64,000 nt of DNA from Candidatus Poribacteria bacterium (GTDB lineage: Bacteria > Poribacteria > WGA-4E > WGA-3G). This document shows, in pieces, positions 17,784-48,328 of the stretch. The notes beneath the pieces were generated by a model that did no database searches, was not told where the DNA came from, and worked only from the letters and a program-made list of their open reading frames with translations. How positions within the stretch are numbered: the first letter of the stretch is position 1; each line of letters begins with the position of its first letter. The translations under genes and the position numbers were made by a program. The stretch covers positions 43,514-107,513 of the forward strand of contig JAPPDN010000059.1 in assembly GCA_028824575.1 (NCBI GenBank). Direction: 5' to 3'.

Positions 17784-19196
17784 CTAATTACCAGAAATAC
17801 TTCTCTGTCCCTCATCAACACTTGGTAAAATCTGTTCATCTATACACTTCTTCAACATTTCTCTCAAAATATCAATAGTTTCTTCAACTATTTCATCAGC
17901 TTGTTCGTTGTTCTGGATATGTCTTAATCTACCTTTTCTCTGTGCAATTGCGTGTACAAAAGCATTTCTTATATCATAAAACTCAGTAAGCGGTTTACCA
18001 TTTATCTGAACAGATGATATAAAACTGGTAAGTGTATCAGTTATTCTGTTTGTGCCGACAGATTTTTCAATTGAAGTTTCAAATGAAATTGCTAACATAG
18101 GTACTCTATTGTAATCTAACCTCATAGGCAATGTTTGTATATCCATAAACAATTTTACACAATCCATAAAATCTTTGCTTTCTTCACTGCCAATGCTATC
18201 TATTGCTACAGTTTGTTCATAAATATGCTTTATTGCCGCCATATCATTGTCTGTTATTGAAATCTTATTAGTACGCCCCAAAACATAATCTATACTGCCT
18301 CCTGTTGAGTGGAATTCTGCCTCTGGCAGAAGATAAAGCAAATGATTTTCATCTAACGACAGAAAATGCCATGAGTACGAGATCGGTGTTTTTAGGTACA
18401 GTGAAAATGCGAAACATAAAATATCTATCCTAAGACTCCCCTTTTTTTCTGTATTAAACGATCGCTTATCATAAGTAAAAATTTTCCCAGTTTTTCTGTC
18501 AGATATGTATGGTAATCCAGGATCGTTTTCCAACATTTTTGAATACTCGTCTTCAGTGACAACTTTAGGTTTTTCTATAACTCTCTTAAACTCGTTTTCT
18601 GATACTAAAAGCGTTCTATCGGGCCAAAATGGATAACCGAGTTGTTTCAGTAATGATTCTGGTATAACACCCAGATTTTCGTTGGATGGCATTATTTCAA
18701 AATCTGCGAAATTATAATTTTTTGAAATATTAAGTCCTTCTATTACCATATATTCTTTATATTTCAGCGGATCATTATTTGAAAACGACTCTAACTTATC
18801 AATTGCGCAACTTATATCAGTAGCTATACACCATAGAATTAAACATCTGACTATGTCCTCCATTGAAACACTTATTGGAGAATACAATGGGGTTATAATC
18901 TGATAGCGCTTCTTTGACATTATGGAAGGTACAACATAGTCACCAAAACAATCTAACAAGACATCTACCAGAGATATTTCTAAATTGCGTTCAATCGCCA
19001 CTCGTAATTTGTCTAAATGTTCCAGAAACAGCGCATTATGATTCTTTGTCCGCAATTTGTTATTTACAAATGTCTTAGCTTGCCAATGTTTAAGCTGACA
19101 ACTAGCAAATGCTGCTGAATCATAACGAAAATATACTGTGTCTTCGTTAATTTGCGACAGCAAATCTGAAATTTGATTTATTAAGGATTTATCCAT
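17784..19196 (-). CDS. HEPN-like (Rx4H motif) protein, candidate abortive-infection (Abi_2/AbiD-AbiF-like) protein; markedly AT-rich gene
   Basis: 470 aa; C-terminal YDIRNAFVHAIAQRKGR matches the R-N-x3-H HEPN signature of Abi_2-type proteins. Local GC is clearly lower than the flanks, and the gene is adjacent to an IS3 element. Confidence 0.45.
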   Translation of the reverse strand: MDKSLINQISDLLSQINEDTVYFRYDSAAFASCQLKHWQAKTFVNNKLRTKNHNALFLEHLDKLRVAIERNLEISLVDVLLDCFGDYVVPSIMSKKRYQIITPLYSPISVSMEDIVRCLILWCIATDISCAIDKLESFSNNDPLKYKEYMVIEGLNISKNYNFADFEIMPSNENLGVIPESLLKQLGYPFWPDRTLLVSENEFKRVIEKPKVVTEDEYSKMLENDPGLPYISDRKTGKIFTYDKRSFNTEKKGSLRIDILCFAFSLYLKTPISYSWHFLSLDENHLLYLLPEAEFHSTGGSIDYVLGRTNKISITDNDMAAIKHIYEQTVAIDSIGSEESKDFMDCVKLFMDIQTLPMRLDYNRVPMLAISFETSIEKSVGTNRITDTLTSFISSVQINGKPLTEFYDIRNAFVHAIAQRKGRLRHIQNNEQADEIVEETIDILREMLKKCIDEQILPSVDEGQRSISGN

Positions 19197-19319
19197 TACT
19201 TTTTCCTCTATATGACAATCTTGGTTTAGAGGGTGATCTGTGTACTGCCTACGGTTTTTTGGACCACTCCCTAAAGGAAGATTGTGCTACAATACAATCT
19301 CAATTGAAAGGAGAATCCA

Positions 19320-19604
19320 ATGGCGAAACGAAGAAGATTCACCCCTGAGTTTAAAGCCGAACTTGTTTTTGAAGTCCTCAGCGGTGTCAGTTCCCAAGCA
19401 GAAGTCTGTCGACGACACAACCTCAACGAAAACCAACTCTCACAGTGGAAGCGACATCTGCTTGAAAATGCGTCCTCGTTGTTTGAGTCTTCTGATAAGC
19501 AGTCCAGTGATGCTGAGAAGCGTATCGCCCACCTTGAGCAGCTCGTTGGGAGAATGGCGGTCGCCTTAGACATCCAAAAAAAACTATTGACGGAGTTGGA
19601 CTGA
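19320..19604 (+). CDS. IS3-family transposase OrfA (HTH)
   Basis: MAKRRRFTPEFKAELVFEVL... typical IS3 orfA. Confidence 0.85.
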   Translation: MAKRRRFTPEFKAELVFEVLSGVSSQAEVCRRHNLNENQLSQWKRHLLENASSLFESSDKQSSDAEKRIAHLEQLVGRMAVALDIQKKLLTELD

Positions 19605-19654
19605 CGTTATCTGAAAAGCGATGCCACATTTCGGCACTGCAAAAGGAGCATTGC

Positions 19655-20425
19655 GTGCGAGATATTTGTCAAATCCTCGGTGTCAACCGCAGCAGTTTCT
19701 ATTATCAACCCAAAGCGGATCCGTCCGAAGCGGTGCTGCGGGCTGAAATAGAGAAACTTGCTGGTGCGTATCCGAGATACGGGTATAGACGTATCACCCA
19801 GCTCCTCGTGCGTCAGGGATACAGCGTTGGGACCCGAGGCGTCGCTCGATTGATGAAAGAGAATCATCTCTTGGTCTGCGTCGAACGTGCGTGTCGAACA
19901 ACAAAGTCGCTTCAGGGAGATAAACCGTGGAGCAATCTACTCAAAGACCTTGAGATCTCTCATCAGGATCAGGTCTGGTATGTTCGTCTCAGGGAACGCT
20001 TCATCTATGTCGCTCTGCTCATGGATGTTTTCACCCGAGTGATCAAAGCGTGGCATCTGAGTCCACACTTGAACCAATCTCTGACGCTCAAACCGCTCCA
20101 AGAGGCATTCTGTCACAGCGTCCCGGAGATCCATCATTCCGATCAAGGAGTGCAATATCTTTCAAAGGCGTATCTCTCGGTGCTCAAAGCACACGCTATT
20201 GAGATTTCAATAGCTCGCAGAGGGTGTCCTTGGGAGAACGGATACGCCGAAAGACTCATCCGCACGCTCAAGGAAGAAGAAGTCCACCTCAACGATTACC
20301 AAGATATTACCGAGGCTCGACAAAGCATCGGTCATTTTCTCACACAGGTATATAACCATAAACGTCTCCATTCGGCGTTAGGGTATCTGACTCCCGCCGA
20401 ATTTCAGAGACAAACCTTCTCTTAA
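19655..20425 (+). CDS. IS3-family transposase OrfB (DDE integrase core), probably expressed as an OrfAB fusion by -1 frameshift
   Basis: rve-type motifs: DQGVQY, WENGYAERLIRTLKEE, NHKRLHSALGYLTP. Confidence 0.85.
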   Translation: MRDICQILGVNRSSFYYQPKADPSEAVLRAEIEKLAGAYPRYGYRRITQLLVRQGYSVGTRGVARLMKENHLLVCVERACRTTKSLQGDKPWSNLLKDLEISHQDQVWYVRLRERFIYVALLMDVFTRVIKAWHLSPHLNQSLTLKPLQEAFCHSVPEIHHSDQGVQYLSKAYLSVLKAHAIEISIARRGCPWENGYAERLIRTLKEEEVHLNDYQDITEARQSIGHFLTQVYNHKRLHSALGYLTPAEFQRQTFS

Positions 20426-20524: not shown

Positions 20525-20962
20525 TCAAACTCGCCAAAGCTTTTCAGAATCTATCTGTAATTTAGATTCCCAAGTTTGGGCGTTACGGAAATAAGACGGA
20601 TCTTCCTCCCATGAGAATGTCAACAGCCATTTAACAATACAAGCAATATCCATACGCTTTTTGCGGTTCTGGATATACCACTTTTCCAAGCTTTGATGGA
20701 GGTCGGGGGCAAATTCCCGATTACTACGGTATGCCCGGAGTTCGCGGATGAGTTTTCTGCGGGTTTCTCGTTGCGTCCTCCTAAAACGCCAGCGAGCGGC
20801 ATCACTTTGAAGATGCTGTTGACTATACCGACGTTCTAAATTATAGCGATGATTCCAAATAAACCGTAACTCCTGAACAAGCACATCTTCAAAGGTTATC
20901 TTTTCAGGTATCCATTGACCATCTTCAATACAGTTGAATTCGTATAAGAATTCGTTGTTCAT
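20525..20962 (-). CDS. hypothetical basic protein
   Basis: 145 aa ORF; a copy of the structured element lies upstream. Confidence 0.35.
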   Translation of the reverse strand: MNNEFLYEFNCIEDGQWIPEKITFEDVLVQELRFIWNHRYNLERRYSQQHLQSDAARWRFRRTQRETRRKLIRELRAYRSNREFAPDLHQSLEKWYIQNRKKRMDIACIVKWLLTFSWEEDPSYFRNAQTWESKLQIDSEKLWRV

Positions 20963-21062: not shown

Positions 21063-21245
21063 AGTCAAACTCATAAAAATTCAAGGCTTCCCTTGGCAAC
21101 CCGGCATTCAACCCGTATCACGGGGTTGGATAGGACTCGGCACTGAGGTGCACCGAGGTGATACTCCTATCCACCAAGTTATTAAAAGTCTACCAGAAAA
21201 ACAAACGAATTACAAATTGCTTTGTTCCCTACGCCCTTGCTTCCT
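21063..21245. ncRNA. candidate structured RNA / palindromic element, copy 1 (unnamed family)
   Basis: About 180 bp conserved with 28661-28824. Nested stems show compensatory substitutions: aaccc/gggtt vs aatct/agatt, and gcac/gtgc vs acac/gtgt. Confidence 0.4.
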
Positions 21246-21557
21246 TCCACTGTTAGTACAGTAGGGCGCGGACAAACGATTCCATTTGTCAAGGATGATT
21301 GGATGTCCCAGCCCCAATCTTTTTATCCTCCTACCACGTAAATTCAATCATGTGAAAGTAGCCACTTGGTTATAAAGACTGCAGTTTTGAGTGGATTTCG
21401 TGCATAAAATGAAAAAACATGAAAAAATTAGGAAATCTAAGGTCTGCCTGTCCCTGATAAGGGACATTAGGGCGTATCCTGCTTCAGACAACAGCACCCC
21501 CTGCTAATAAAAAATCCGCGTAATCCGCGACAATCCGCGACAATCCGCGATTCGGAA

Positions 21558-21935
21558 CTACGGCGGTGGATTACACCGACCACACGGTCCATACCGCTGT
21601 TTCGCCTCCGTCAACGAGATCGGAATCTTACTTCGCCGCAAAGAGATACACCCTTCGCGATGATACTTCTTTCCTGTCCGAGTGACGAAGACCTGTTCTT
21701 CCGACGTTTCACCTATTGCTGCTGAGTCAACCGATGGTACTACCTCGCTCATACTCGGTTGGAGAGCTCCGTACAGCTCTTTCCCTGAAGTGCGCGCCCG
21801 ATTCCCATAATACCGGAATAACTCCATGTGTTTAAACGGGAACTGCGTGTAGGCGTGACCATACCCCTGCCGCACAATCTCCAAATTCACAAAAAGCCCA
21901 TCTGGAGCACGATAAAGATACGCCAAGAGGCACAC
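21558..21935 (-). pseudogene. truncated staphylococcal-nuclease (SNase/thermonuclease)-like fragment with C-terminal Cys cluster
   Basis: YLYRAPDGLFVNLEIVRQGYGHAYTQFPF resembles the SNase C-terminal half; the N-terminal part of the fold is missing. Ends with KYHREGC...PCGRC. Confidence 0.35.
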
Positions 21936-22170
21936 AAAACCATTCCTATTCCAATGATTTTTGCATCAAATACCCGACTTCAAGCGAAGACAAATAGATC
22001 ATTTCAATATCATTCTACCCGGTTAATACGCCTCGCCTCCGATTTTACTTTTTGCACAAAAAAACGAATCGCTTCTTTCTCTGCGGCTTTACGGGAGTAG
22101 AATCTTCTACCCTTTTGGTAAACAAAAACCGATCCAAAATTACTTTTCCATTCCGTCTGGTTGATTGCAT

Positions 22171-23121
22171 TTATCCCTTTAGAATTTTAAGTGCTGCCCT
22201 TTTCAGAAATCTGGCTGGAAACTTTACCCTATTCGCCAGTTGTGCTTCATCGTACCCTCTCCGGAGCGATTCAATTTGCAGTTTCGCTAAATCGCTAAAC
22301 TCCAGTTCGGCTTTGAACGGTTCAGGTCTCAACGATGGTAGTTTATGGACTTGCTCAACGAGTCTGTTCGCTCGACCGTATCGCTCGAACCTACGCTGGA
22401 AGTCTTGAAGGTCTTCATCAAATTCATGGGAAACGATAGCACGCGGGGCATATACCAACCTACCGAGCTGCCTAAGTCGAATCCCTAAATCTAAATCCTC
22501 GCCGCCCGCTTCTCCAAAAGCCGTTGAGAACCCACCTAATTGATGGAAGACTGGCGCGTATACTAACGCGTTGGCAGTGATAATCGCCTGCGGGATTTCT
22601 TCACCGCGGGGTCCTAACGCATCTTCAAACGGCGGATTGAGGATGCTCATCTCCGTCATGTACCGATTGATCCTTCCCGATCCTTTCCCCTTCACCGTCC
22701 CGCACACCGCGACGACTGAATCGCCGCTCGCTTCCTGCGCATTTCTGAAATGTGTGATGAGATTCCTGACATGCTCACATCCGCAGTCTGTAAAATAGAT
22801 CCAGTCGCACGCCGTTCCCGGATTTTCAGCCCCCCGATTCCGGGCATACGCGGGTCCCCTATTATTACGATAATTGATGACCTGTATTGGATACGCTTTT
22901 AACCAACTGGGGACGCTCGTATCGGCATTATCATTTGCAACCGTGATCGCTCCTGGACGCGGATTCAGTCTCCCTAAACTCTCCAATGTGATCTTTAGAC
23001 CTTCCCAGTCCTTATAGACCGGAACGACGACGCGAATCCTTCTGGGGTCAATTTTGGGCGACCTGACGGACACCTGACTCGATCGAGGCGGTAACGGTAA
23101 AGTGTGATGCGTTGCTCCCAT
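22171..23121 (-). CDS. family 2 glycosyltransferase
   Basis: VVVPVYKD...ANDNADTS...DCGCE...; GT-A fold signature. Confidence 0.65.
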   Translation of the reverse strand: MGATHHTLPLPPRSSQVSVRSPKIDPRRIRVVVPVYKDWEGLKITLESLGRLNPRPGAITVANDNADTSVPSWLKAYPIQVINYRNNRGPAYARNRGAENPGTACDWIYFTDCGCEHVRNLITHFRNAQEASGDSVVAVCGTVKGKGSGRINRYMTEMSILNPPFEDALGPRGEEIPQAIITANALVYAPVFHQLGGFSTAFGEAGGEDLDLGIRLRQLGRLVYAPRAIVSHEFDEDLQDFQRRFERYGRANRLVEQVHKLPSLRPEPFKAELEFSDLAKLQIESLRRGYDEAQLANRVKFPARFLKRAALKILKG

Positions 23122-23203
23122 ACGACAAACCTTTCCTGTAAAATTTTGAGGGTACTCTCATAAGATTGATGAGGGATAGCCCCCTCGTGCGCAGACACTG
23201 CCA

Positions 23204-23554
23204 TCAATGCCTCACTGGATCGGGCCCAAAACGATTGTGTCCCTTTGTGCCTTTAATAAAGCCTAACTCCACTACTGTCCAAATTTGGCCAATAATCGGG
23301 ATCAGGGTAAACAGGATCCATAATGCCGATTTGTTCCGGTCATGCCAGCGTTTTGCAGCGACTGCTAACTCTATCCACGCCAATACCACTAAGGTGATGA
23401 GATAGTGTGAAACTTTCAGAGAATCCGGATCAAAGAGTTCAGGATCAACAGCTTCGAGAATTACAACGATGATCGCTATGAGCACCTGGATCAGCCACCA
23501 GATGCCTCTCCCAACTCGACCCTTAAATGAAAAGCAAATTTGTGCGAAATTCAA
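23204..23554 (-). CDS. DUF805-family inner-membrane protein
   Basis: FKGRVGR..WW and the KRWHDRNKS motif; two TM segments. Confidence 0.6.
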   Translation of the reverse strand: MNFAQICFSFKGRVGRGIWWLIQVLIAIIVVILEAVDPELFDPDSLKVSHYLITLVVLAWIELAVAAKRWHDRNKSALWILFTLIPIIGQIWTVVELGFIKGTKGHNRFGPDPVRH

Positions 23555-23573
23555 TCAATTCCTCCTCTCAGGT

Positions 23574-24323
23574 TTACTTATTTAGAAGAATAACAATCAA
23601 GACTACAATGCCACTCGTGGCAATACTCCCAACGGCTACGGATATACTGATAAACCACTTTAATCGCGTTTCTGACCTATCCATTCTATCGTTGAGATCC
23701 TCTTTAACATCATCAATCTTTTTGTTGAGATCCTCTTGGACATCCTCAATCTTTTTATTCAGACGTGACTCAAGCTGCTCAAAATCGTTACCAACGAGGG
23801 ATTCTACTACACTTAAAATCTCTTGCGCCCGTTCTGATAAGTCAGAAAGCCTTGCCTCCTGCCACTTATCTGTTCCCTCACCCTCCATATTTTCTATATA
23901 ATCTCTAAGTTTTTGCTTTAACTCATTAGCAATGGGATAACCATCGATTTCCCGTAGGATATCCTCGTTAGTTTTGCCTTGCGCTTTTAGGTTCTCAAGC
24001 ACCCTTTTAAAGATCTCCCAAAAGCCAAATTTGGGGATCGCTGATGCGATGAGTACCAACCCTCCCAACAGTGTGATTCCACCGAGCATCCCCAGAGGTC
24101 CGCCAAGGCCCGCCAATCCAGTCGTTATTGCAGCTGCACCAGACCAACCTGAAACCGACATTGCCACAAGTAACACGATCCCTGGAACTCCCAATCCGGT
24201 AATTATTTCCACCGCCCTGTCTATCGGAATATTATACATTGACCGATCCTTCAAATCAAAATTCCCAATGAAATCTCTAATCAACCCCTTAATCTTATTA
24301 AAATTCATAATTAAATACCTCAC
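23574..24323 (-). CDS. membrane protein with Gly-rich TM hairpin and C-terminal coiled coil
   Basis: 249 aa; TM segments (GIVLLVAMSVSGW, LGGITLLGGLVLIASAI, ISISVAVGSIATSGIVVLIVILL) flank a charged coiled-coil region. Confidence 0.45.
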   Translation of the reverse strand: MRYLIMNFNKIKGLIRDFIGNFDLKDRSMYNIPIDRAVEIITGLGVPGIVLLVAMSVSGWSGAAAITTGLAGLGGPLGMLGGITLLGGLVLIASAIPKFGFWEIFKRVLENLKAQGKTNEDILREIDGYPIANELKQKLRDYIENMEGEGTDKWQEARLSDLSERAQEILSVVESLVGNDFEQLESRLNKKIEDVQEDLNKKIDDVKEDLNDRMDRSETRLKWFISISVAVGSIATSGIVVLIVILLNK

Positions 24324-24346
24324 CCTTCATTCCTACGCAGTGGGAC

Positions 24347-25360
24347 CTACTGCTGCATCACTTGCTCTCGGTGCCATGCCAATGCTTCCTGAGCAGGACA
24401 GTGTCGTTCAACGGGAGGTGTCCATATACGTTTATCACATAACTCACTTAACATCCTCTCCGTCGGTTCATGTTCGTGTGAAATTGGTGGAACAATGACA
24501 TGGTATGTTTCGTTCAAAGAAAATAATCTTGCATCAAAAGCCCAGTGGTGTGATTTACAAAGGGAAATACCGTTTCGAACATCATCATTATAGGAGACAG
24601 AAAACGGGATGATATGAGCAGCATCAGTGATACTCGCACCACTCTCCGTGCGGATGTCTAACTCACAGACGGCACACGTGTAATCATAAATTTCCATGAT
24701 CGCCCGACGGAAACCCGCACTCCGCACCGGTGTCTCTGTTTGCACAGACGCTACGTCTCTCTGCATTAAAAAGGGGTGTTCAACGGCTTGTATCAATTGT
24801 TCACTGTAGCTTTCAATGTCCTCCGCGATGCATTCCAAGCCGAGGGTTCGGTGTTTCTCAATGACCTGTTCAATCTCATACCTGATATTTGAAAAATAGG
24901 TGCTAATCAGCGTCTGACAGAGTATCTCCCGATACTCGGGCATCACGAGTAAAACAAAAAGACGCTCGTCCAACTTGGCAACAGCATCGATGTTGCGAAG
25001 ATACGCCCCGGTGGGGGTTAACCCAGCAGGTCTTGATTGTAGTTCGGCAGGATCCAAATGCCAGAACCCATTGGTTTTCAGATGAAAGAATGAATTGTGG
25101 AGACTTGGTTTCCAGTCCGTTGTGTTTCCTCTATTGAAAGCCGCAATCAGATCTGTAAAGAAAGGCATCTTCTCTTCGATTTCTCTGAAAGGGACACGAT
25201 TTTCGGAGAGTTCGCCGCTCTCAAGCATCTCCATGATGATTAAAAAGAGAAACGGTTTATGAGGAGTTCGCCTTCTGTCCTGTAAGCCTTGCAGCCTTTG
25301 GATATAGTCTTGTAGCGTGTGGATCATCGTTTCTTCTTGAAACTCTCTTTGGATATACAC
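24347..25360 (-). CDS. HNH endonuclease with N-terminal uncharacterised domain
   Basis: C-terminal CAVCEL...DAAHIIPFS...NGISLCKSHHWAFD (HNH/McrA-like Cys/His pattern). Confidence 0.6.
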   Translation of the reverse strand: MYIQREFQEETMIHTLQDYIQRLQGLQDRRRTPHKPFLFLIIMEMLESGELSENRVPFREIEEKMPFFTDLIAAFNRGNTTDWKPSLHNSFFHLKTNGFWHLDPAELQSRPAGLTPTGAYLRNIDAVAKLDERLFVLLVMPEYREILCQTLISTYFSNIRYEIEQVIEKHRTLGLECIAEDIESYSEQLIQAVEHPFLMQRDVASVQTETPVRSAGFRRAIMEIYDYTCAVCELDIRTESGASITDAAHIIPFSVSYNDDVRNGISLCKSHHWAFDARLFSLNETYHVIVPPISHEHEPTERMLSELCDKRIWTPPVERHCPAQEALAWHREQVMQQ

Positions 25361-25383
25361 AATTTTTGTGTCATGCAGTCAAC

Positions 25384-25938
25384 TTAATCCAACTTATCAA
25401 CGCGATCCCGGAACACGAAATCTAACGTTTCCAATGTTTTGCGTAAGAAGTAAAACTGCTCGTTTCGGTCACTAACATCCATCAGATCCGTTCCATACCG
25501 GCTGATTCCAACCCCGTTCTCCCTCCAATCTAATTCTTCGTTAAAATAAGCTTGTATGTCCTCTTTTTGTTTTTCTAATATGTCAATATGTTTCCGCGAT
25601 AGGACGCGAAGTCCGGCAGCAATCATACCAGATCCTACCAGTGCATACAGCCAGATACCTGATTGGTTAGGCTTTCTAATCAGATAGCCAATATAAATTA
25701 TTTCTTTTATAACATTCTGCTGGAAAAACTGAAGATGGCTCTTCTCCATAAACGCCTTAAAGTCTTCAGCATACTGCTCGCGCAAATCGACATTAGATTT
25801 CTCTGTGGTCGCTTCTTTATTCCTTCCAAACAAACTCACAAATTCTCCTTTCGTAACAGCAGGTTGTTTGAACCTACCTTTTTGTAAACTGGCGGTTCCT
25901 ATCGCCATAATAGATTTTTCCACTTCAGTTTGTCTCAC
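25384..25938 (-). CDS. hypothetical protein with one TM segment
   Basis: 184 aa ORF directly upstream of the HNH gene. Confidence 0.4.
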   Translation of the reverse strand: MRQTEVEKSIMAIGTASLQKGRFKQPAVTKGEFVSLFGRNKEATTEKSNVDLREQYAEDFKAFMEKSHLQFFQQNVIKEIIYIGYLIRKPNQSGIWLYALVGSGMIAAGLRVLSRKHIDILEKQKEDIQAYFNEELDWRENGVGISRYGTDLMDVSDRNEQFYFLRKTLETLDFVFRDRVDKLD

Positions 25939-26007
25939 ATTGTGTCAATCTGTTTCAGATTCAAACAACTCTATAATCCACCCTTTCACCTGAAAACTTG
26001 ACACTTT

Positions 26008-26274
26008 TTACTCTTGCTGAGTGGCTCTCCAAATCATTTTTCGTCCCTTTTCATCAACGCGTTCAACGCGTCCGTCACGACGCAGGGCATCAAGAATACC
26101 ACGAATCAGTGTATAGCTGTCAGGGTCTTTAAACGAAGGCTCAATGCCTAAAAGTTCACTAATTTCGCTGTTAGTCAGTTCACCAGTCCCTATATCTGCC
26201 GCCTCTATCAATACCCTGTAGGCAGCTTCTTTGACACAAAACAGCCCTGCGTCAGACAATAGTTTGTTGCTCAA
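26008..26274 (-). CDS. small HTH-like protein
   Basis: 88 aa; LTNSEISELLGI helix-turn-helix-like. Confidence 0.3.
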   Translation of the reverse strand: MSNKLLSDAGLFCVKEAAYRVLIEAADIGTGELTNSEISELLGIEPSFKDPDSYTLIRGILDALRRDGRVERVDEKGRKMIWRATQQE

Positions 26275-26347
26275 CGGTAAATTCTCCTTTAAAAATGTCT
26301 GGCATTAACTTCATCGACCAGATTTCACTCACGACCATGCTACATCC

Positions 26348-27480
26348 TTACTGCGATTCAGCACCATCGGCATCAAGATTAATTTTAAATTCTGCCCAGA
26401 CCGGTATATGGTTACTGATGCGTCTAGGTTTTATGTCGGTGCCTTCAAGCAGATCATGAAAAAAGAATACATCGGAATTCCCGCTGTATTCTTCGAGATA
26501 ATACGGCTGGAGCAAGATGTTGTCGTAAAGCGCAGTCTTCGAGATATTCGTTGTTTTAGGGGGTAAAATCAATGGCTCAACCTCATAGGTAGAAGATATC
26601 TGGATATCCTCAAACGCATCATCATTCGGCTGCAAGTTGAAGTCTCCCACAAGGAGAACATCGTTCTCGAAGTCATCCGTTCCCTGGACCGTATTGTATA
26701 CTATTGCCAAATCCTCAAGTTCTCGTCGTCTCCTCTTATAACTCTCCTTACGTTCTTTTTCAGTCCTTTGTGGTCCAAATAAAAGATGGACAGCAATAAC
26801 GGTAAAATCAAAATTTCCAGCGCGGAACGTAGCCCAACAAGGATCCCGAGTAAATTTGCCTTTTTTACCTTTTGCATCTGGATAAAGCTGCAGACCTTTG
26901 ACGACTTTAAATCTCTGTTTTTTGAACAAAAAAGCATACCTTTCCTTTGTTGGAAACCCCCACCCCGCTATTGGACTAACTCTATGATCATAATCCTTCT
27001 CAAGAATTTTAAGGATTTCTTCAAAATCCGATGACTCGGATTCATCTTTTCGTCCTTCAAATATCCCCTCTTTCGACAGTTTAATATTGTCGTCCATAAA
27101 TTCTGTGATGACGATAAAATCATACTTAGAGATAATCTTTGCAATAATTTTTAACTCCTCAGGAGTTCGGTCCTCTTTTTTTTCTTTCCCTCCTCATTCT
27201 CTGGGTACTTGTACCCAAACGATTCTATGTTCCAAGTCGCAATCTTTATTGTTTCCTCTGCCGGAACGGTAGAAACGTCCTGTCCGTCCGCCCGAATTTC
27301 AAGATCCGACAAGGTAAGTGGAAGCACGAGCACGAATAAACAAAATACCGCTTTGAAATTCAACTTTTCCATCATGATATTGCTCCTTATCCTTGTTAGA
27401 ATTGGAATACAGCAAGCAGATTTCACTAAAGCCCTCTCCCCTCGCCAGAACTGCAGCGTATGGACATCACAAACGCCCAA
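26348..27480 (-). pseudogene. secreted EEP-family (DNase I-like endonuclease/exonuclease/phosphatase) gene split by a frameshift in an A8/T8 homopolymer
   Basis: The upstream part has a signal peptide and IKIATWNIESFG (EEP motif I). The downstream part has GDFN and SNHIPVWAEF motifs. One extra A in the run at 27176-27183 would fuse them in frame. Confidence 0.6.
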
Positions 27481-27602
27481 TTTAATGATTTGCGCGTGAC
27501 AACCTTGTTATAAAGGTAGGTTTGGTTCAGGGATTTGGCAGTTTTCTGAAAATTCGCGTAATCCGTAAAATCCGCGAGAATCCGCGATTCAGAATTTCCC
27601 TG

Positions 27603-28175
27603 TTATGAAGTCAACTGCGCCCACGGATAAAGGTGCGTCCAATCTTTGCTGAAAATAACCCGAACCGGTTGATACTTCTCCGCAGACAACCGCAAGAAAA
27701 CGGCATATACCAACGCCCGATGATTCCCGTCTTCAAGGTAAAACCTGATTTTCGGAGAATGCGCAGGTTTCTCATAAGCCGCCAGCGGTCGAATCAACAA
27801 TTCTCCCATCAAGCGCGGATCAAACCGCGCACTGATAATGAAGCACCCCTCGAACCACGGCTCGTCCTCGGAGAGCTGCTTAAAGACTTGGATGGGACTC
27901 TCATACGGATATACCTTCAGAATCCTGTCTACGACTTCCTTCAGCGTGCGCGACTTGCCTTCAGGCGTTAAGATGTCTACCAGTTTCTGATTGTTTGCCC
28001 ACACGTTGTCATTCGCTTCCATGAAAACGAGGTCGTCAAAGTCTGTCTCACGCAGCGTGAAGGTTTTGTATTCTGCACGCTCTATCTGCTGTCGGGTTGC
28101 TTCGTATTCAGATGGAGATGCCGATAACCGATTGGCATCCGCTAACAGAAGTTCTTTCACGTTTGCAATCTCCAA
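27603..28175 (-). CDS. hypothetical protein with DGNHR motif (possible ParB/Srx- or DGQHR-like fold)
   Basis: 190 aa; YLEDGNHRALVYA near the C-terminus. Confidence 0.35.
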   Translation of the reverse strand: MEIANVKELLLADANRLSASPSEYEATRQQIERAEYKTFTLRETDFDDLVFMEANDNVWANNQKLVDILTPEGKSRTLKEVVDRILKVYPYESPIQVFKQLSEDEPWFEGCFIISARFDPRLMGELLIRPLAAYEKPAHSPKIRFYLEDGNHRALVYAVFLRLSAEKYQPVRVIFSKDWTHLYPWAQLTS

Positions 28176-28528
28176 GGCTTCCGACCCTTGCCAGCCGCGA
28201 TATCGGCATGCGCCTGACGCACCTGCTCAACCATGTCTGGAACGTCTTCCGGGTCAAGCCCCACAATCTTACCAAAGTTCTGCGGCATGTTGGGACCGTG
28301 CTCCTTTACCCACGCCTCAAATTCCTCAGCCGAACGGTTCTCAAACATCAGGTTGAACACGCGCTCCTTATACTCAGGGGTTGACTGAATTTCCTCGAAC
28401 TGCTTTTCGGTCAGATTGCATCTTTCGAGCAATCTTCTCTTTTTGGCACGATACCACCATGAAAACTCAGCAATAGCCTTGATGTGATGCACAGCGAATG
28501 TTGTGCCGGCTTCAACTTTATCGGACAT
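28157..28528 (-). CDS. hypothetical protein
   Basis: 123 aa ORF overlapping the downstream gene start; structured element copy 2 lies upstream. Confidence 0.35.
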   Translation of the reverse strand: MSDKVEAGTTFAVHHIKAIAEFSWWYRAKKRRLLERCNLTEKQFEEIQSTPEYKERVFNLMFENRSAEEFEAWVKEHGPNMPQNFGKIVGLDPEDVPDMVEQVRQAHADIAAGKGRKPWRLQT

Positions 28529-28660
28529 TCTAATCTCCTCACCAAATTTTGATGCACATCGTTATCCCTTCACGATGCAAAATAGCAATCCACTCTGTGC
28601 TTTCGGGACACCTCACAAGCAGAAAGCGATACCCAAACATACAATAAAACTCATGTTCAA

Positions 28661-28824
28661 CAAGGTTTCCCTTGGCAACCCGGCATACAATCTGTTTCAC
28701 GAGATTGGATAGGACTCGACACAAGGGTGTGCCGAGGTGAAACTCCTATCCGCCAAGTTATATAGAGTATATCACGAGAAACAAACGAATTACAAATTAT
28801 CTCGTTCTCTATACCTTTGCTTCC
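28661..28824. ncRNA. candidate structured RNA / palindromic element, copy 2
   Basis: See copy 1; same orientation and same position relative to a downstream minus-strand gene. Confidence 0.4.
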
Positions 28825-29329
28825 TTGTAATGCCGCCCAAAACTGTCGAAAATTCAGTGCCAACAGAGGACCTTGATTTAAAGACTGCAGTTTTGAGAGG
28901 ATTTCGTGCAAAATGTGAAAAAAACAGGAAATTTAAGGGGAAATTGGGAAATTTAAGGAGAAACTCGTGAAAATAAAGGTTGGTTCGGTTCAGGGATTTG
29001 GCAGTTTTCTGAAAATCCGCGAACCACCCTACTCCCGAATAACAGGAACCTCGTCGTCATCCCCATGGCCATACACGACCTCTGACTCCGGTTTCCGCTC
29101 ATACTCCCAGACCTCACTGACAAATTCCCATGCCGGCGGAACAAGCCATCCATGCCGCCGTTCTACCGCCACCGCGGGGTCATCGGAAGGCACTGGGAGA
29201 TCGGGATCCTCAAAGACGAACTCAATCTTCTTGAGACACCACTGCTCTAACTCGGCATCCCATTCTTCATAGATCCGTTTGAGGACCTCCCGGAATAAAT
29301 CGTTTTCGTCGCGATACAGCGACCGGATT

Positions 29330-30591: not shown

Positions 30592-30826
30592 CGTATTTTC
30601 TCCATGAGCGTGTTTGGTTAGATTTGTGGTGACCAAGTCCCACTCGCTTAAAGTTCGCATTTTCTCGGAAATGCCAAGGACGCTTCCGCCCTAACCGGCG
30701 ACCTCTCCCATCACTTCTTCGGGCAGGGGACTCCATGCTTTAGCGTGGAGGGGAATGCCCTGGTGTTGTTATTGAAAATGCGTGGTCTGAATCTGGCTCC
30801 ATGCTTTAGCGTGGAGGGGAATGCCC

Positions 30827-32145
30827 GCCTCTTTTTCTTGACATAAATAGTCAAAAATGTTATACTATTTTCATAGCGTTGGACCGACATGTAAAGCATT
30901 ACCGCTTGGTAATGTGTCGGTCCCACCCACTTTACAGGGGTTAAAGACGCTATACGCTATAATCAAATGAGAACCTATAAATATCAGATACGCGAACATC
31001 CGCAGAATATGCGTTTGGGTAATCTGCTCGACGAACTTTGCGATGTCCATAACCACTTTCTGAAGTTGGAGAAGCGGTATTACCGCATCTATGGCAAATA
31101 TGCCGGTAGGTATCGTCTGCAACCGCACTTGACGAAGCTGCTCCAACGCACCCATAAACATTGGGCATGGATACCGCGTGACACGCTTGACGCTGTGATT
31201 ATCCGCTTGCACCTTGCGTGGGAAAAGTTTTTTGATTTTCTCAAAAAGGGAAAGCGCGGCAGACGTGTCGGTCCCCCGAAGTTCAAAAAGCGTGAGAAAT
31301 ACCGCTCTGCGAAGTTTTCTTATGCCTACCAACTTGAGCAAGGGCGTGTTCGTATCTCTTTTAGAGTATGGAACCCAAAATCCCAAAAGTTCAATAAGTA
31401 TCAGAAAATCTATTTCTCTTTCCATCCGCATCGCCCGTGGAAAGGCGATGTCCGCTATATTCAAATCGGTCGGGATGCCGTTGGCACATTGTGGCTCTAT
31501 GTCGTGACAGATAACACCGTCAGAAAAATGCTGTCCGCTACAGGTGAAAGCGTAGGGATAGACTTTGGTATCGACACCTATCTGACACTCAGCACCGGTG
31601 AAAAGATTCACCATCCGCAACCCTTGAAACAATCCTTGAAAGAACTTCGCAGACTCAACAAAGCGATCAGTCGAAAGGTGAAAGGTTCTAACAATTGGTG
31701 GCGTGCTGTCCGTGATCTCGCACGGCTTCACCGCAAGATCGGCAACCAACGCAGAGATTGGCACTACAAACGCGCCACTGACCTCTGCCGTCGGTTTGAT
31801 CACATTGTCACCGAGACGCTGAACCTTGACGGAATGAAACGGCTTTGGGGACGCAAAGTCTCCGATCTTGCTTTTTACCAGTTCGTTGAGATATTGAAGT
31901 TCAAGTGCTTTAAACATAATCGTGAGTTCTCTCAAGTCGGGCAATGGACTCCTACTACAAAACCTTGCTCAGATTGTGGGCATCACAACGAAAATCTTTC
32001 GCTTTCGGATAGGCAGTGGACATGCCCTGAATGTGGCTCACACCACGATCGGGATGTCAATGCTGCTATCAACATTCTTCGGGGCTGCTTAGATCCCCTT
32101 GTGGAGTAGATGTAAGACCTTCCTCGGAAGGCGAACTACGATGAA
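30827..32145 (+). mobile_element. IS200/IS605-family TnpB-only element, copy 3 (distinct subfamily); boundaries approximate
   Basis: The left end has a TTGACA-17-TATACT promoter plus a hairpin (ggaccgacat...atgtcggtcc). The right end ends gtaagacct..acgatgaagca. Hairpin repeats CCAYGCTTTAGCGTG flank it on both sides. Confidence 0.6.
30967..32109 (+). CDS. tnpB: TnpB (IS200/IS605 OrfB family)
   Basis: VGIDFGI RuvC-I motif, CSDCGH...CPECG zinc finger, DRDVNAAINI RuvC-III. Confidence 0.85.
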   Translation: MRTYKYQIREHPQNMRLGNLLDELCDVHNHFLKLEKRYYRIYGKYAGRYRLQPHLTKLLQRTHKHWAWIPRDTLDAVIIRLHLAWEKFFDFLKKGKRGRRVGPPKFKKREKYRSAKFSYAYQLEQGRVRISFRVWNPKSQKFNKYQKIYFSFHPHRPWKGDVRYIQIGRDAVGTLWLYVVTDNTVRKMLSATGESVGIDFGIDTYLTLSTGEKIHHPQPLKQSLKELRRLNKAISRKVKGSNNWWRAVRDLARLHRKIGNQRRDWHYKRATDLCRRFDHIVTETLNLDGMKRLWGRKVSDLAFYQFVEILKFKCFKHNREFSQVGQWTPTTKPCSDCGHHNENLSLSDRQWTCPECGSHHDRDVNAAINILRGCLDPLVE

Positions 32146-33470
32146 GCACAAGCCCCACGCTTTAGCGTGTGGGTGCTATTGACAATCCTCGCCTTCTCAT
32201 CTTCATACGCTGCAACAACCGGTGCCAGCAACTCCTGACAGTACTCCTCTTCAAGGATGGCGTTGATCTCCGCCGTCACCATGCCCCCTTTCTGATATGC
32301 CGCCATCGCAGACGGCTGTGCCTCAAGCCGTTGACGGACGATATGAGATTGGACACGCGTCGCGGCGGCTTCAACGAGTTCCGGATCGGTATGGATGGCT
32401 TGACGGATGATGGTATTTCGCTTGGTTTTGTACTCTGCCGTCAAGTCCTCAAGCTCCTTTTCCTGAACTTTCTCGGCTCGCAGCTGACGCTCTTTCTGCA
32501 CCTGTTCGTCCTCATAGTTCTCGCGGATCGCCTTAATGATATACCCCGCACGATTCCGCACACCCACCGCATCAATCGACATCTCAATCTTCTCAGCGAC
32601 ATACCCCATGAAATCCGGATACGTATCGAGCAGCGGCAACTTTTCAGGGTTCACAAAATCCCACTCCTGGGCAGCGATCTTCAAGGCAATGTTCCGCTCA
32701 ATCCGCGCTTGGACAAGCTCAATCGCAATAGGCGGGAGGTTCTCTATATCTGGGAACAACGACTCCTGGACCGGTACCTGCTTGACCCGTGTGATACGGA
32801 ACTTCAATTCACCGACCCGCCGACCGATGCGTTTTTGCTCAACCTCTACATGATAGTCCGTCTCTTTATTGATCTCCTTGACAGCCGGTTTGATAACCGC
32901 ACGGTTGAATATACTATACGCCGGATACTCACCGCTTTCGATCCCAAGCAGCTCCCTAAACGTATCCAACGCAATGAAGGGCGTTTCTCCCTGGTCTCGT
33001 TCGGTATCAAAGTAATCGAAACACAGTTCCCACAAAACTAAGGCATACTGGCTCTTGAACCGGTTTTGGAGACGGAGGTTCAACTTGGCGTAGACGCGCG
33101 GGTTATACAACTTCAGACGCAGATGCGGCGCAAAAGCATACGTACAGATGCCATCCTCGATTTCAACGGAAGCCAATAGACCTGCTACACCCCAGACCTG
33201 CTTGTTGTCTTTGTTCAGTAGATTCCATTCAACATCGCAAGAACGCAGCTTCCTTAACATCTCTTTCAAATAGTCCTCGTTCTTGCTATCGAAACCGAGT
33301 TTCGCCGCTAATTCCACCATGCTGACACGATGAATCTCCTGATTCGGGAGCTCATTGTAGGCATTGGCGAGGAGCACGTTCCACGCACGCCGCTGCAGCA
33401 ACGAAATTTTACTCTGAATCTGTATCGCCGGACTCGCTTTGACGAATTCGTTGATTTTCGCTAAGTTCAT
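32136..33470 (-). CDS. plasmid/phage replication initiator (Rep_3/RepA-like winged-helix)
   Basis: 444 aa; N-terminal region typical of iteron-binding Rep proteins (LLQRRAWNVLLANAYN...VSMVELAAKLGFDS...). An iteron array lies immediately upstream. Confidence 0.5.
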   Translation of the reverse strand: MNLAKINEFVKASPAIQIQSKISLLQRRAWNVLLANAYNELPNQEIHRVSMVELAAKLGFDSKNEDYLKEMLRKLRSCDVEWNLLNKDNKQVWGVAGLLASVEIEDGICTYAFAPHLRLKLYNPRVYAKLNLRLQNRFKSQYALVLWELCFDYFDTERDQGETPFIALDTFRELLGIESGEYPAYSIFNRAVIKPAVKEINKETDYHVEVEQKRIGRRVGELKFRITRVKQVPVQESLFPDIENLPPIAIELVQARIERNIALKIAAQEWDFVNPEKLPLLDTYPDFMGYVAEKIEMSIDAVGVRNRAGYIIKAIRENYEDEQVQKERQLRAEKVQEKELEDLTAEYKTKRNTIIRQAIHTDPELVEAAATRVQSHIVRQRLEAQPSAMAAYQKGGMVTAEINAILEEEYCQELLAPVVAAYEDEKARIVNSTHTLKRGACASS

Positions 33471-33793
33471 GAGATATTCCTTGTAATAGAGTTTGCAGTT
33501 AATCAGAAAGTTTGTAAGTGTGCTAAAGTTCGGAAGTCTGTAAAGTTGAAAGAGTCGGGAGAAGTTTGAAAATGTGCTAAAGTTGAGAAGTTCAGAAGTT
33601 GTAAGAGATGCTTTGACCTTCCCAACCGCTCTTGCAACTTTAGAACACTTTAGGCACTTTAGGAGACTTTGAAACTTTCTTTCTCTCTTGCAACTTTGAA
33701 ACTTTAGAACACTTTACTGACTTATTTATTGAAGACTGACAACTATTTTACAATTAATTATGAAAATTTATCAATATAATTTTTCATAGTTAA

Positions 33794-34158
33794 CCCCATA
33801 AACGTTCATATTAAAGTCGAAACTTCTATAATATCTTCCGAGCACAAGCAGGTATCTATGGACATCCTATCCGTTCTCACACGCCTCCCCATAAACGTTC
33901 ATAGTTAGCCGTTTGTAGACTTTTCACCCTTCGTCAATTAACGAATCATCGTCCATCAGAGTCCATTTCCCCATAAACGTTCATGTTAACAGGCATCGCC
34001 GCTGGCGAGGTTTCCTCACCTCGACTTCCCATCCCAAACCCCAACAATCCGCGATTCCCCATAGACGTTCATGTTTTCCCCATAGACGTTCACCTTTAAC
34101 CCCATAAACGTTCACTTTACTCCCCATAAACGTTCACCTTTAACCCCATAAACGTTCA
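33794..34158. repeat. iteron array: 8 copies of CCCCATA[AG]ACGTTCA (4 dispersed, 4 tandem at ~22-bp spacing), bracketed by identical 28-bp taaccccataaacgttcatattaaagtc
   Basis: Direct reading; starts at 33794, 33887, 33969, 34057, 34078, 34100, 34122, 34144. Confidence 0.85.
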
Positions 34159-41479: not shown

Positions 41480-41784
41480 TAGGTCTTTTTGATTTTATGT
41501 TGATACTCGGAACCGTTTTTATTGGATTTCTGCCCTCACGGAGCGATAGACCCCGATGGAAACTCTAAAATACGTGCAACCCCGCACCCGTGCAGATGTG
41601 AAATTGTGCAAGTGTGCACACCTGCAAGCGATCTTCTGTAGGAGGGAACTCCGATTCCCGACTTAACCGAGATTATAGCCTGCAACAACGGCGCAGGCGA
41701 ATATACGGAATGGAACCGGAAGGCCCTAACCTTCCTGACCGAACCGCAAGGAAAATTAAAAATACCGCAAGGAAAGTTAAAAAT

Positions 41785-48296: not shown

Positions 48297-48328
48297 CCCC
48301 TTCCAAAATCTAACGTTTTTATCTCTAT

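Follow-up and report, generated by a model that had tools for sequence, protein, structure and literature searches.

The 64,000-nt window analyzed here, a stretch of a Candidatus Poribacteria contig, contains two copies of an element of about 170 bp, and the locus raises the question of whether these are structured RNAs and, if so, what they do for the genes that follow them. We find that the element encodes, on the minus strand, a structured RNA that lies in cis to the downstream genes. Copies A (21082-21246) and B (28661-28826) are 82% identical by MAFFT and repeat search (repeat families D13 and D16), which bears out the positions and the identity of about 80% given in the first-pass annotation. 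A third close copy is absent from the window: a degenerate 45-nt core pattern, with 0 matches expected from 100 shuffles, matches just the two known sites. The compensatory changes described earlier were recovered as well: helix P3 is AACCC/GGGUU in one copy and AAUCU/AGAUU in the other, three positions of the inner helix differ between the copies with pairing kept, and the outer stem, GGAUAGGA/UCCUAUCC, is the same in both. As also stated there, both copies lie ahead of minus-strand genes, with start codons at 20962 and 28528, located 136 nt (copy A) and 149 nt (copy B) from the end of the core fold. A MITE-like origin is not supported: neither terminal inverted repeats nor target-site duplications were seen at the copies, which have the P1-P4 core in common and differ in both flanks.

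The conserved structured core consists of 83 nt (21098-21180 in copy A, 28677-28759 in copy B) and a 14-nt hairpin, P4, all on the minus strand, the strand that is sense to the downstream genes. An identical minus-strand MFE fold was obtained from both copies, and both were detected by CM R1 (124 bits for copy A) and by a descriptor scan. The fold is a three-way junction built of P1, P2/P2b, and P3. P1, a helix of 8-9 bp, closes the junction (21173-21180 with 21098-21105 in copy A; 28752-28759 with 28677-28684 in copy B); P2 (21165-21172 with 21128-21135; 28744-28751 with 28707-28714) and P2b (21150-21157 with 21136-21143; 28729-28736 with 28715-28722) form a long arm that carries a 7-nt bulge; and P3 (21123-21127 with 21110-21114; 28702-28706 with 28689-28693) is a short hairpin. 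An additional 7-bp pseudoknot, in which the P2 bulge pairs with the P3 loop, makes the fold compact. In copy A, the bulge GUAUCAC (21158-21164) is the exact reverse complement of the loop GUGAUAC (21115-21121), and in copy B, the changed bulge GUUUCAC (28737-28743) is compensated in the loop GUGAAAC (28694-28700). P4 is CAAGG-GAAG-CCUUG (21082-21095) in copy A and CAAGG-GAAA-CCUUG (28661-28674) in copy B; in copy A alone, it is followed by AAUUUUUAU, which gives it a terminator-like look. The rest of the copy B leader (28529-28660), up to the Shine-Dalgarno GAGGAG and AUG, is kept in sequence in most copies of this subfamily (SF1; alignment A6), and RNAalifold found no covarying structure in this remainder. 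The earlier annotation had neither assigned the strand nor recognized the pseudoknot or the broader tnpB-linked fold class described below.

The 14 distinct close homologs all belong to Candidatus Poribacteria MAGs, circular Rep3 plasmids of about 120-142 kb, or sponge metagenomes. In alignment A3, 95.9% of the cells are paired, and 23 of the 40 pairs are changed on both sides, compared with 6.3±1.6 in shuffles (0 of 500 reach 23) and 4-9 in slid controls. RNAalifold recovered the same helices from 16 sequences, and the pseudoknot covaries although it lies outside the search model: at pair 29-75, 10 sequences have AU and 5 have UA. G-U pairs occupy 85 of the 858 pair cells, and because these would become A-C mismatches on the opposite strand, the folded strand is the minus strand. 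An Rfam 15 cmscan, suggested in the first-pass annotation, which had itself matched the element to no known family, returned no match at gathering thresholds or at E ≤ 10; the fit is also poor to attC sites, to the hairpin at the IS end, to terminators, and to the cores of riboswitches or ribozymes. Together with the strong covariation in the homolog alignments, pseudoknot included, this null result supports the previous reading of a structured RNA rather than a protein-binding repeat.

The position of the fold relative to promoters is nearly invariant. The -10 hexamer is separated from the first base of P1 by exactly 6 nt in 24 of the 25 copies with a recognizable -10, and that base is A in 23 of those 24. 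In copy A, the sigma70-like minus-strand promoter (21187-21215) consists of a -35 TTGTAA (21210-21215), a 17-nt spacer, and a -10 TAGACT (21187-21192), followed after six nt by A at 21180; in copy B (28766-28795, same strand), TTGTAA, an 18-nt spacer, and TG-n-TATACT score 9/12 in the promoter scan with the upstream TG, with A at 28759 again six nt onward. We infer that transcription from the conserved promoter begins with the first base of P1, and with this spacing fixed, the 5' end of the RNA would be base-paired. The promoter is not recognizable in four or five copies (L034:6602, L046:9388, L041, L049:14218, and, weakly, L043:9767), which would sit within longer transcripts.

In all 29 copies, a same-strand ORF lies 3' of the element. 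The first gene after copy A (20525-20962, minus strand) encodes 145 aa without a Pfam match; the one after copy B (28157-28528, minus strand; 123 aa) heads an operon of about nine genes extending to 21558, with products that include EEP-type nuclease, wHTH, DUF4268, HNH, and GT2 proteins, and its family also follows the element in L034, L036, L043, L044, and L046. A cis-acting leader is favored over a small RNA because of this constant placement (29/29), the predicted promoter-set start at P1, and the restriction of the terminator-like hairpin to copy A. The first-pass annotation had further noted auxiliary motifs shared by both copies, which we recovered as motif D7 (TGCACG-N19-GTCTTTA; 21364-21432 and 28870-28938, minus strand) and as CGCGGATT repeats (21513-21552, and one copy at 29013-29021). 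D7 occurs four times in the window, each time ahead of a minus-strand operon, and in L022, L034, and L036 it likewise precedes the element.

Two more subfamilies have the same architecture in sequence that cannot be aligned, so that the element belongs to a Poribacteria-specific fold class of three subfamilies with mutually unalignable sequences. The subfamily consensuses are 33-41% identical in register, and each pairs at 33/33 positions compared with just 12-19/33 when strands are cross-combined between subfamilies, in an alignment curated by maximizing pairing, such that the counts lean towards structure. A descriptor scan over 455 kb matched only these elements, with 5 matches in the real window versus 1 in twelve dinucleotide shuffles of it. 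One subfamily, SF3, is located 5' of tnpB in all eight Poribacteria tnpB genes examined, three of them in the window; this tnpB belongs to a very abundant IS200/IS605-type element. The three SF3 members of the window, all on the plus strand, are unrelated in sequence to copies A and B: 30873-30953, 13 nt before the tnpB ATG at 30967 (bulge UGUAAAG, loop CUUUACA; promoter TTGACA-17-TATACT, 30838-30866); 10618-10695, 13 nt before the tnpB ATG (UACGACG, CGUCGUA; TTGACT-18-TATAAT, 10582-10611); and 49401-49478, ahead of the third tnpB (UGACAAG, CUUGUCA; TTGACT-17-TATGAT, 49366-49394). The eight tnpB-linked copies have eight different bulges, each the exact complement of its own loop, and the start codon, as read per copy, follows P1 by 11-14 nt.

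The IS605-orfB-I and -II motifs described by Weinberg et al. in 2017 reportedly adjoin orfB; they are likewise orphan structured motifs tied to orfB (tnpB) in elements of the IS605 type, and they may act either as RNA or as ssDNA. Of the two families, RF03065 and its sister, RF03065 is present in Rfam 15 (PMC11701678). Unlike these motifs, the fold described here is also found ahead of many genes other than tnpB, and covariance-model searches of three tnpB 5' regions, extended to E ≤ 10, gave no match in any of them. Just simple hairpins lie upstream of the nearest non-poribacterial TnpB homologs (Rhodothermus, Nostocales, Geoalkalibacter).

A duplicate of the P1 3' strand, Y2, invariably comes after it; in copy A, this duplicate comprises the 5' half of P4 and the preceding GC and offers the 5' strand of P1 another complementary partner. 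The three segments X, Y1, and Y2 covary across four sequence variants. P1 and the alternative pairing P1' are isoenergetic in SF3, whereas the P1' state is less favorable by 3-7 kcal/mol in SF1 and SF2. In SF3, Y2 sits 5-6 nt before the start codon, the usual position of a ribosome-binding site.

The reading that we put first, tentatively, is that the element represents a hitherto undescribed 5'-leader RNA module that acts in cis and most likely serves to protect or gate the mRNA behind it. Transcripts from a sigma70-type promoter would begin with the first P1 base, and their 5' triphosphate end would be buried in a blunt, coaxially stacked helix that would shield it from 5'-end-dependent decay; in the promoter-less copies, the shielded end would arise after upstream cleavage. 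Y2 would permit the alternative P1' pairing, in the tnpB subfamily covering the ribosome-binding-site position, and translation gating by the fold is also probable in that subfamily. Direct gating would not be general, because the SF1 start codon is 86-158 nt away (the exception being L045:6859, with an uncertain start). Known 5' stabilizers, such as the ompA 5' UTR and those of phages, place a structure at or within a few nt of the 5' end and act independently of the gene. However, these are simple hairpins, in contrast to the present three-way junction of 83 nt, which contains a pseudoknot and has its closing strand in duplicate; a simple hairpin suffices for known 5' protection, which leaves the conserved pseudoknot and Y2 under-explained, and a pure 5'-end cap does not account for the promoter-less copies without an added processing step. 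Flaviviral xrRNAs are compact three-way junctions locked by a pseudoknot, in which shape matters more than conserved unpaired bases. They are elements of eukaryotic viruses, and the likeness is in predicted shape; their pseudoknot joins the 5' end to a downstream strand, whereas the present one joins a bulge and a loop.

A regulatory switch is possible but unlikely. In this scenario, a factor acting in trans, either a protein or a small RNA and with lower probability a small ligand, would tip the equilibrium of P1 plus P4 versus P1' and thereby turn downstream expression on or off. The covarying second complement after P1 in all three subfamilies, the isoenergetic states and Shine-Dalgarno position of Y2 in SF3, and the GGA/GAAA-type purine loops on P4 of SF1 and SF2 would all suit such a device. 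The energy penalty in SF1 and SF2 speaks against it, as do the functional heterogeneity of the downstream genes and the failure to identify a candidate binding protein. Furthermore, unpaired nucleotides are hardly conserved across subfamilies, the A-rich J3/1 alone being common to them, which makes a ligand pocket unlikely.

Processive antitermination by an RNA that modifies its own RNA polymerase in cis appears improbable. The HK022 put and EAR elements are structured RNAs in promoter-proximal or intra-operon positions that act in cis on the downstream operon and occur in more than one diverged copy per replicon; a phage genome has two put copies that differ from each other, and both follow a promoter. 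The present fold, too, occurs immediately downstream of promoters or within operons and invariably on the sense strand, with several copies per replicon ahead of multi-gene, foreign-looking operons, and its variable position relative to start codons suits action on transcription. It could serve full transcription of long acquired operons and of the untranslated omega-RNA region of tnpB. Nevertheless, it resembles neither put, which consists of two simple stem-loops, nor EAR in sequence or structure, and it has no Rfam match; terminators needing override were not identified, terminator-like sites in the region being no more common than in shuffles, and this reading gives no reason for the set distance between the fold and the start codon of tnpB.

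We consider it very improbable that the structure acts as ssDNA, whether as an attC-like site at the borders of gene cassettes, as a structure of IS200/IS605 ends, or as a signal for priming. Like integron attC, the element is repeated, structured, in one orientation, and separates variable gene cassettes, the copies lying 2-7.5 kb apart; one subfamily resides inside an IS that transposes as ssDNA, and G-T wobbles are tolerated in ssDNA, which makes the strand evidence compatible. However, attC sites are imperfect hairpins with R/L boxes, 3' of promoter-less ORFs, that fold and recombine through the bottom strand, and none of this holds here: the fold is on the sense strand and RYYYAAC/GTTRRRY cores are absent. 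Among the scanned ORFs of at least 280 aa, a set that left out the three tnpB genes and rep (identified by homology), there was no Pfam match to tyrosine recombinases. The tnpB IS has its own canonical TTTA-loop hairpin upstream of the promoter, like the right-end hairpin, and its right end has no structure matching the fold. The invariant spacing from -10 to P1 in the three subfamilies is sensible only for a transcript. The arrangement also resembles the DUF1874 motif, a multistem structure in potential 5' UTRs of consecutive intergenic regions (motif, ORF, motif, ORF), for which Weinberg et al. (2017) raised a possible attC-like ssDNA role (PMC5737381). Unlike that motif, the present element has no Rfam match and heads units of 1-9-gene operons with their own promoters; its pseudoknot covaries, and few nucleotides of its loops are conserved, where DUF1874 has a highly conserved internal loop.

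Behind this we rank, as also very unlikely, cleavage to a defined 5' end, either by the fold itself as a ribozyme or by an RNase for which it is a dedicated processing site, with start-site placement providing that end in promoter-linked copies. The resemblance of promoter-less copies to the others begins exactly where P1 begins on its 5' side, a compact three-way junction with a pseudoknot looks ribozyme-like, and small ribozymes are common near mobile elements, but there are no conserved catalytic-core nucleotides across subfamilies and no Rfam ribozyme family matched, even at E ≤ 10. Least credible, and already strongly disfavored, is a dsDNA operator or palindrome bound by a plasmid regulator with incidental structure: the embedding of the element in a longer stretch of conserved upstream sequence that contains motif repeats (D7, CGCGGATT, and TAAATTTCC) and the HTH, RHH, and ParB-like proteins and ECF sigma factor encoded by the plasmid would fit, but such a site needs neither a G-U-specific strand asymmetry nor a covarying bulge-loop pseudoknot and leaves the same architecture across unalignable sequences unexplained.

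The element is a previously uncatalogued, tightly folded RNA, probably a leader, on a plasmid of sponge-associated Poribacteria, and, being seen in unrelated sequences, the fold looks like a portable "start-of-message" module. Under the protective reading, it would most likely constitute a portable promoter-plus-leader cassette, the shielding of which would set the stability and expression of whichever gene follows.

The two repeats, described in the first-pass annotation as about 80% identical, align at 82% identity (21082-21246 against 28661-28826), and the compensatory stem differences quoted for them are present in both copies. Each is followed by the minus-strand gene assigned to it (20525-20962 and 28157-28528; the two genes are mutually unrelated), and upstream motifs are indeed common to both, namely D7, a motif shared by the two copies (at 21364 and 28870), and CGCGGATT repeats. 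A degenerate 45-nt pattern of the core occurred at just two sites in the window, those of copy A (core fold 21098-21180, minus strand) and copy B (core fold 28677-28759, minus strand), and in none of 100 shuffles. Folding of the minus strand yielded one multibranch structure common to both copies; on the plus strand, the two copies gave differing structures.

In the RNA of this subfamily (SF1), read on the minus strand, the fold is a three-way junction consisting of P1 (AACUUGGC/GCCGGGUU), P2 (GGAUAGGA/UCCUAUCC), a 7-nt bulge (GUAUCAC), P2b (CUCGGYRC/GYGYCGAG), P3 (AAYCY/RGRUU) with the loop C-GUGAUAC, and J3/1, the junction strand between P3 and P1 (GAAU). The P3 loop is the exact reverse complement of the bulge and forms with it a 7-bp pseudoknot that had been overlooked in the first-pass annotation; in copy B, both sides of this pseudoknot are altered together (GUUUCAC/GUGAAAC). 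G-U pairs are found on the sense (minus) strand only, with one P1 position, for example, being U-G in 15 of 16 sequences. Because these pairs would be A-C mismatches on the plus strand, the minus strand is the folded one. The SF1 leader of about 130 nt after the core is conserved in sequence, and RNAalifold detected no covarying helices in it. The SF1 bulge and the 5' strand of P2b read AUCACCUC (minus strand, 21157-21163 in copy A and 28736-28742 in copy B), which we take to match the 3' end of 16S rRNA (anti-Shine-Dalgarno); a possible pairing partner, by complementarity, is GAGGAGAU, the ribosome-binding site of the 123-aa gene, which lies some 130 nt downstream. This sequence is absent from the two other subfamilies described below, SF2 and SF3.

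An 18-mer scan of one genome per species yielded three true homologs, all in Candidatus Poribacteria MAGs, one of them on a 4.8-Mb chromosome, and a metagenome scan with a different block of the element added two further distinct copies. A covariance model built from seven sequences identified more copies in the homolog loci and in contigs fetched via the protein family of the 123-aa downstream gene, several of which are 120-142 kb long, circular by assembler name, and encode a Rep3 initiator. In the resulting 16-sequence SF1 alignment, 95.9% of the pair cells are canonical. The covariation proposed as a check on homologs is evident: 23 of the 40 pairs changed on both sides, compared with 6.3±1.6 in column shuffles (0 of 500 reached 23) and 4-9 in slid controls. 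One pseudoknot position is AU in 10 sequences and UA in 5; as the pseudoknot pairs lie outside the covariance model, covariation there provides independent support. The same helices were recovered by RNAalifold unaided.

In line with the initial failure to place the element in a known RNA family, Rfam 15 (4227 models) gave no match at gathering thresholds in the window or in 145 kb of related loci, and at E<=10, in four sub-regions around the elements, only spurious snoRNA, miRNA and lncRNA matches. A blastn search of PLSDB with the element returned no match, a 16-mer scan of IMG/VR returned 20, all by chance, and ARAGORN found nothing resembling a tRNA or tmRNA. Literature searches on Poribacteria plasmids and on TnpB in connection with pseudoknots and three-way junctions turned up no account of the element.

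With its filters off, the covariance model produced weak matches; in these, compensatory changes are wholesale, and all helices and the pseudoknot of bulge and loop are intact. A scan of both strands of 455 kb of sequence, 12 loci of unrelated taxa among them, with a descriptor of the architecture (P1, P2, 7-nt bulge, P2b, and P3 with a loop that complements the bulge) matched these elements only; there were five matches in the real window and one over twelve dinucleotide shuffles. Three subfamilies of one fold were delineated: SF1, the element of copies A and B (14 distinct copies); SF2, ahead of diverse genes (7 copies); and SF3, always directly 5' of tnpB (8 copies, those in the window at 10618-10695, 30873-30953 and 49401-49478). 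MAFFT cannot align the three subfamilies and misaligned them jointly, so the cross-subfamily counts were taken with our own script from the descriptor-parsed alignment. This alignment maximises pairing, so its pair counts, which lean towards structure, are 33/33 positions within each subfamily and only 12-19 of 33 for mixed strands (5' of one subfamily, 3' of another), at a consensus identity of 33-41% in structural register. The eight SF3 copies have eight different bulges, each exactly complementary to its own loop. The five central pseudoknot bases differ in all eight (10618, 30873 and 49401 in the window, and related loci L043, L045, L057, L058 and L059), and P2 of SF3 is mostly conserved (GGCAGACA). 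Such variation may reflect selection against cross-pairing of paralogous IS transcripts, or merely a relaxed sequence constraint.

Most copies have a sigma70-like promoter upstream of P1, with a 17-18 nt spacer between TTGTAA and TG-n-TAKACT in SF1 and SF2 and between TTGACA and TATAMT in SF3; a generic promoter scan recovered those of copy B and of the tnpB at 30.9 kb. The distance from the -10 hexamer to the first base of P1 is exactly 6 nt in 24 of the 25 copies in which the hexamer is recognisable, and this base is A in 23 of those 24. Established promoter geometry would place the transcription start on this first base of P1, so that the RNA would begin inside a blunt helix, its 5' end base-paired. 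That helix would stack directly on P2, there being no unpaired base between P1 and P2. In four or five copies the promoter is not recognisable, and these would lie within longer transcripts; two of them, the SF1 copies L034:6602 and L046:9388, have a 58-aa ORF whose stop codon marks the start of the fold. The UAA of this conserved, membrane-like ORF (L034:6427-6603; L046:9213-9389) overlaps the first P1 bases, and in L046 an SF2 fold precedes the ORF, placing two folds in tandem on one transcript. The D7 motif (sense TGCACG-N19-GTCTTTA; 21364-21432, 28870-28938, 53179-53247 and 56294-56362) precedes four minus-strand operons, including those of both SF1 elements and the gene for a 990-aa ECF-sigma fusion protein (53256-56228). 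D7 may be a promoter for the plasmid-encoded ECF sigma factor, or an operator; transcripts beginning at D7 would carry the fold internally.

In all three subfamilies, a second complement of the P1 5' strand (Y2) comes immediately after the 3' strand of P1 (Y1), with Y1 and Y2 reading CCGGGUU and GCCAAG in SF1, ACUGG and GACUGG in SF2, and, in one example, ACCUGAU for both in SF3. The P1 5' strand, Y1 and Y2 of SF3 covary through four sequence variants, and the registers P1 and P1', the alternative pairing with Y2, are isoenergetic. The SF3 start codon, as read for each copy, lies 11-14 nt (mostly 12-13 nt) after Y1, so that Y2 sits at the usual Shine-Dalgarno position; no Shine-Dalgarno sequence is present before the SF3 start codons. 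The Y2 of SF1 and SF2 supplies the 5' half of P4, a hairpin after the core with a purine-rich loop; in these two subfamilies P1 is favoured by 3-7 kcal/mol.

A same-strand ORF lies downstream of the fold in 29 of 29 copies. The window encodes a Rep3/RepB-type initiator with 22-bp iterons, ParA and a ParB-like protein, the ECF sigma fusion protein, an IS3 element and three tnpB genes; a tnpB product from the window is 100% identical to an annotated Candidatus Poribacteria MAG protein (129-kb contig). In related plasmids, a defence island is located downstream of rep (Mrr, HNH/ScoMcrA, GmrSD, AAA_15 ATPase, UvrD-PDDEXK, SNF2-PLD, methyltransferases and SNase), with its operons headed by SF1 and SF2 elements. 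Poribacteria chromosomes carry a much enlarged tnpB family (3648 relatives at E<1e-40). Three additional members that were fetched all have the promoter and the SF3 fold, unlike the closest TnpB homologs from outside the phylum.

Several other repeats were noted in the window. Five iterons of 21-22 bp (CCCCATAAACGTTCA...; 34056-34163 and 33771-33813) adjoin the initiator gene (32136-33470), and this region is likely the plasmid origin; the same iterons abut a tnpB element in L043. Clusters of GTGCA/TGCAC repeats with 8-bp spacing (GTGCAAGTGTGCACACCTGCA; 41573-41626, 42181-42226, 47621-47682 and 48360-48421), near parA (48327-49049) and elsewhere, may be centromere-like or regulator-binding arrays. 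The CGCGGATT repeats have a 10-bp period at 21513-21552, just past the stop codon of the gene at 21558-21935, and recur at 29013-29021 and 27510-27558; one repeat pair forms a terminator-like hairpin, TCGCGGATTACGCGG, followed by ATTTTTT (21516-21530), and TAAATTTCC repeats lie nearby (28915-28960). Two families of short, GC-rich, intergenic hairpin repeats, TGTAGCGCAAACTTTCCAGTTTGCG and GTAGGGGCGAGGTCACCTCGCCCGTAC (5884-5961, 6435, 38235, 43987 and 45768; and 6130, 9182, 14059, 15273 and 40349), could be REP-like or terminator-like elements. The IS3-type element (19240-20425, plus strand; orfA 19320-19604, orfB 19655-20425) separates the first gene after copy A from a 470-aa gene (17784-19196) and probably split a former single operon. 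The 12-nt tandem repeats (TTAGTAGGCATG; 2305-2436) within the ORF at 1758-2480 correspond to a disordered PT-type repeat (Pfam PT).

The element is a selected, strand-specific, pseudoknotted fold, always in cis before genes and at a fixed geometry to the promoter. Judging from sequence, it most probably folds at the very 5' terminus of the message, whose fate it would control. The reading that we prefer, tentatively and just short of even confidence, is that the fold, as part of a portable cassette of promoter and leader, would protect the 5' end from 5'-end-dependent decay, and that in SF3 a P1/P1' register shift would let it gate translation as well.

That the leader is instead a switch responding to a factor appears unlikely. 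P1 competes with P1' and P4 for alternative pairings; no general terminator or Shine-Dalgarno-sequestering helix was found in the leaders as an expression platform. The A-rich J3/1 is the only unpaired sequence shared across the subfamilies, which makes a riboswitch ligand pocket unlikely, and the downstream genes are too heterogeneous for a riboswitch gene set (tnpB, nucleases, methyltransferases, helicases and small unknown proteins). Antitermination of the put/EAR kind, by which the fold would act on the operons it heads, we regard as improbable. In copy A alone, P4 is followed by AAUUUUUAU, which is weakly terminator-like, and the other copies run on into the conserved leader. An intrinsic terminator, or a small RNA gene with its own terminator, was rejected because a GC-rich hairpin with a U-tract occurs in copy A only. 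A leader peptide was rejected as well, since AUGAGUUU, common to copies A and B, opens ORFs of 10 and 13 codons only and is not kept in other copies.

A structure acting in single-stranded DNA during recombination or transposition, which the association of SF3 with tnpB might bring to mind, is more improbable still. The attC R''/R' cores (RYYYAAC ... GTTRRRY) are absent from both strands of the element, and a Pfam scan of the ORFs of at least 280 aa, which covered all but the three tnpB genes and rep (identified by homology), gave no match to a tyrosine-recombinase family. Furthermore, attC sites lie 3' of promoter-less cassettes, whereas these elements carry their own promoters and sit 5' of the units they head, and the folded strand here is the sense strand. 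Hairpins with a TTTA loop (CTCCATGC-TTTA-GCGTGGAG), followed by GGGAGGAAA..CCGCCCTC, are located upstream of the tnpB promoter (30731-30775 and 30797-30841, and in L045, L057, L058 and L059). They resemble the right-end hairpin CCCACGC-TTTA-GCGTGTGGG at ~32150 and look like canonical IS200/IS605 end hairpins. Given this separate hairpin upstream of the promoter, the fold was rejected as the left-end transposase hairpin; no copy of the three-way junction is found at the IS right end. Nor is the fold a general hallmark of TnpB elements, as five of the closest non-Poribacteria TnpB homologs have simple hairpins only upstream.

Slightly less credible again is a ribozyme or processing site: hammerhead, twister, pistol, hatchet and HDV-like ribozymes have no Rfam match at E<=10, the CUGAUGA/GAAA hammerhead core is absent from the junctions, and J3/1, as the sole shared unpaired stretch, argues against a catalytic core as against a ligand pocket. 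A double-stranded DNA operator is very hard to credit, the earlier preference for a structured RNA over a protein-binding repeat being upheld by the covariation, that of the pseudoknot included, the strand asymmetry of the G-U pairs and the architecture common to the unalignable subfamilies.

It is conceivable, if doubtful, that the element represents a new RNA class, a portable promoter-coupled module traded between the IS/TnpB family and plasmid defence islands, with a mechanism undescribed for such a fold. Examples of such a mechanism would be a bacterial exoribonuclease-resistant 5' cap structure, a protein-free antiterminator, a structure that stands in for the ribosome-binding site and sets the timing of TnpB translation by the P1/P1' shift, or a new self-cleaving ribozyme. 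That the element is a new structured-RNA motif, of the kind "orphan cis-leader motif near mobile elements", is well supported. The nearest known counterparts are the motifs of IS605-orfB and that of DUF1874, which recurs in consecutive intergenic regions (PMC5737381); the element matches neither.

Unusual features are the single architecture of three unalignable subfamilies, the unvarying link between promoter, start site and P1, the second copy of the closing strand, and the service of the same module to an abundant TnpB element and to plasmid defence operons. The promoter-start-P1 coupling and the duplicated closing strand provide hypotheses testable in vitro, with no need for host culture, and a compact, gene-independent 5' module is a possible expression insulator or stabiliser part. 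If confirmed, this would be a well-supported new structured RNA class from an uncultivated phylum, composed of three subfamilies of unrelated sequence and marked by a covarying pseudoknot. It would tie the control of TnpB expression, TnpB being the protein from which Cas12 descends, to the organisation of plasmid-borne defence islands.
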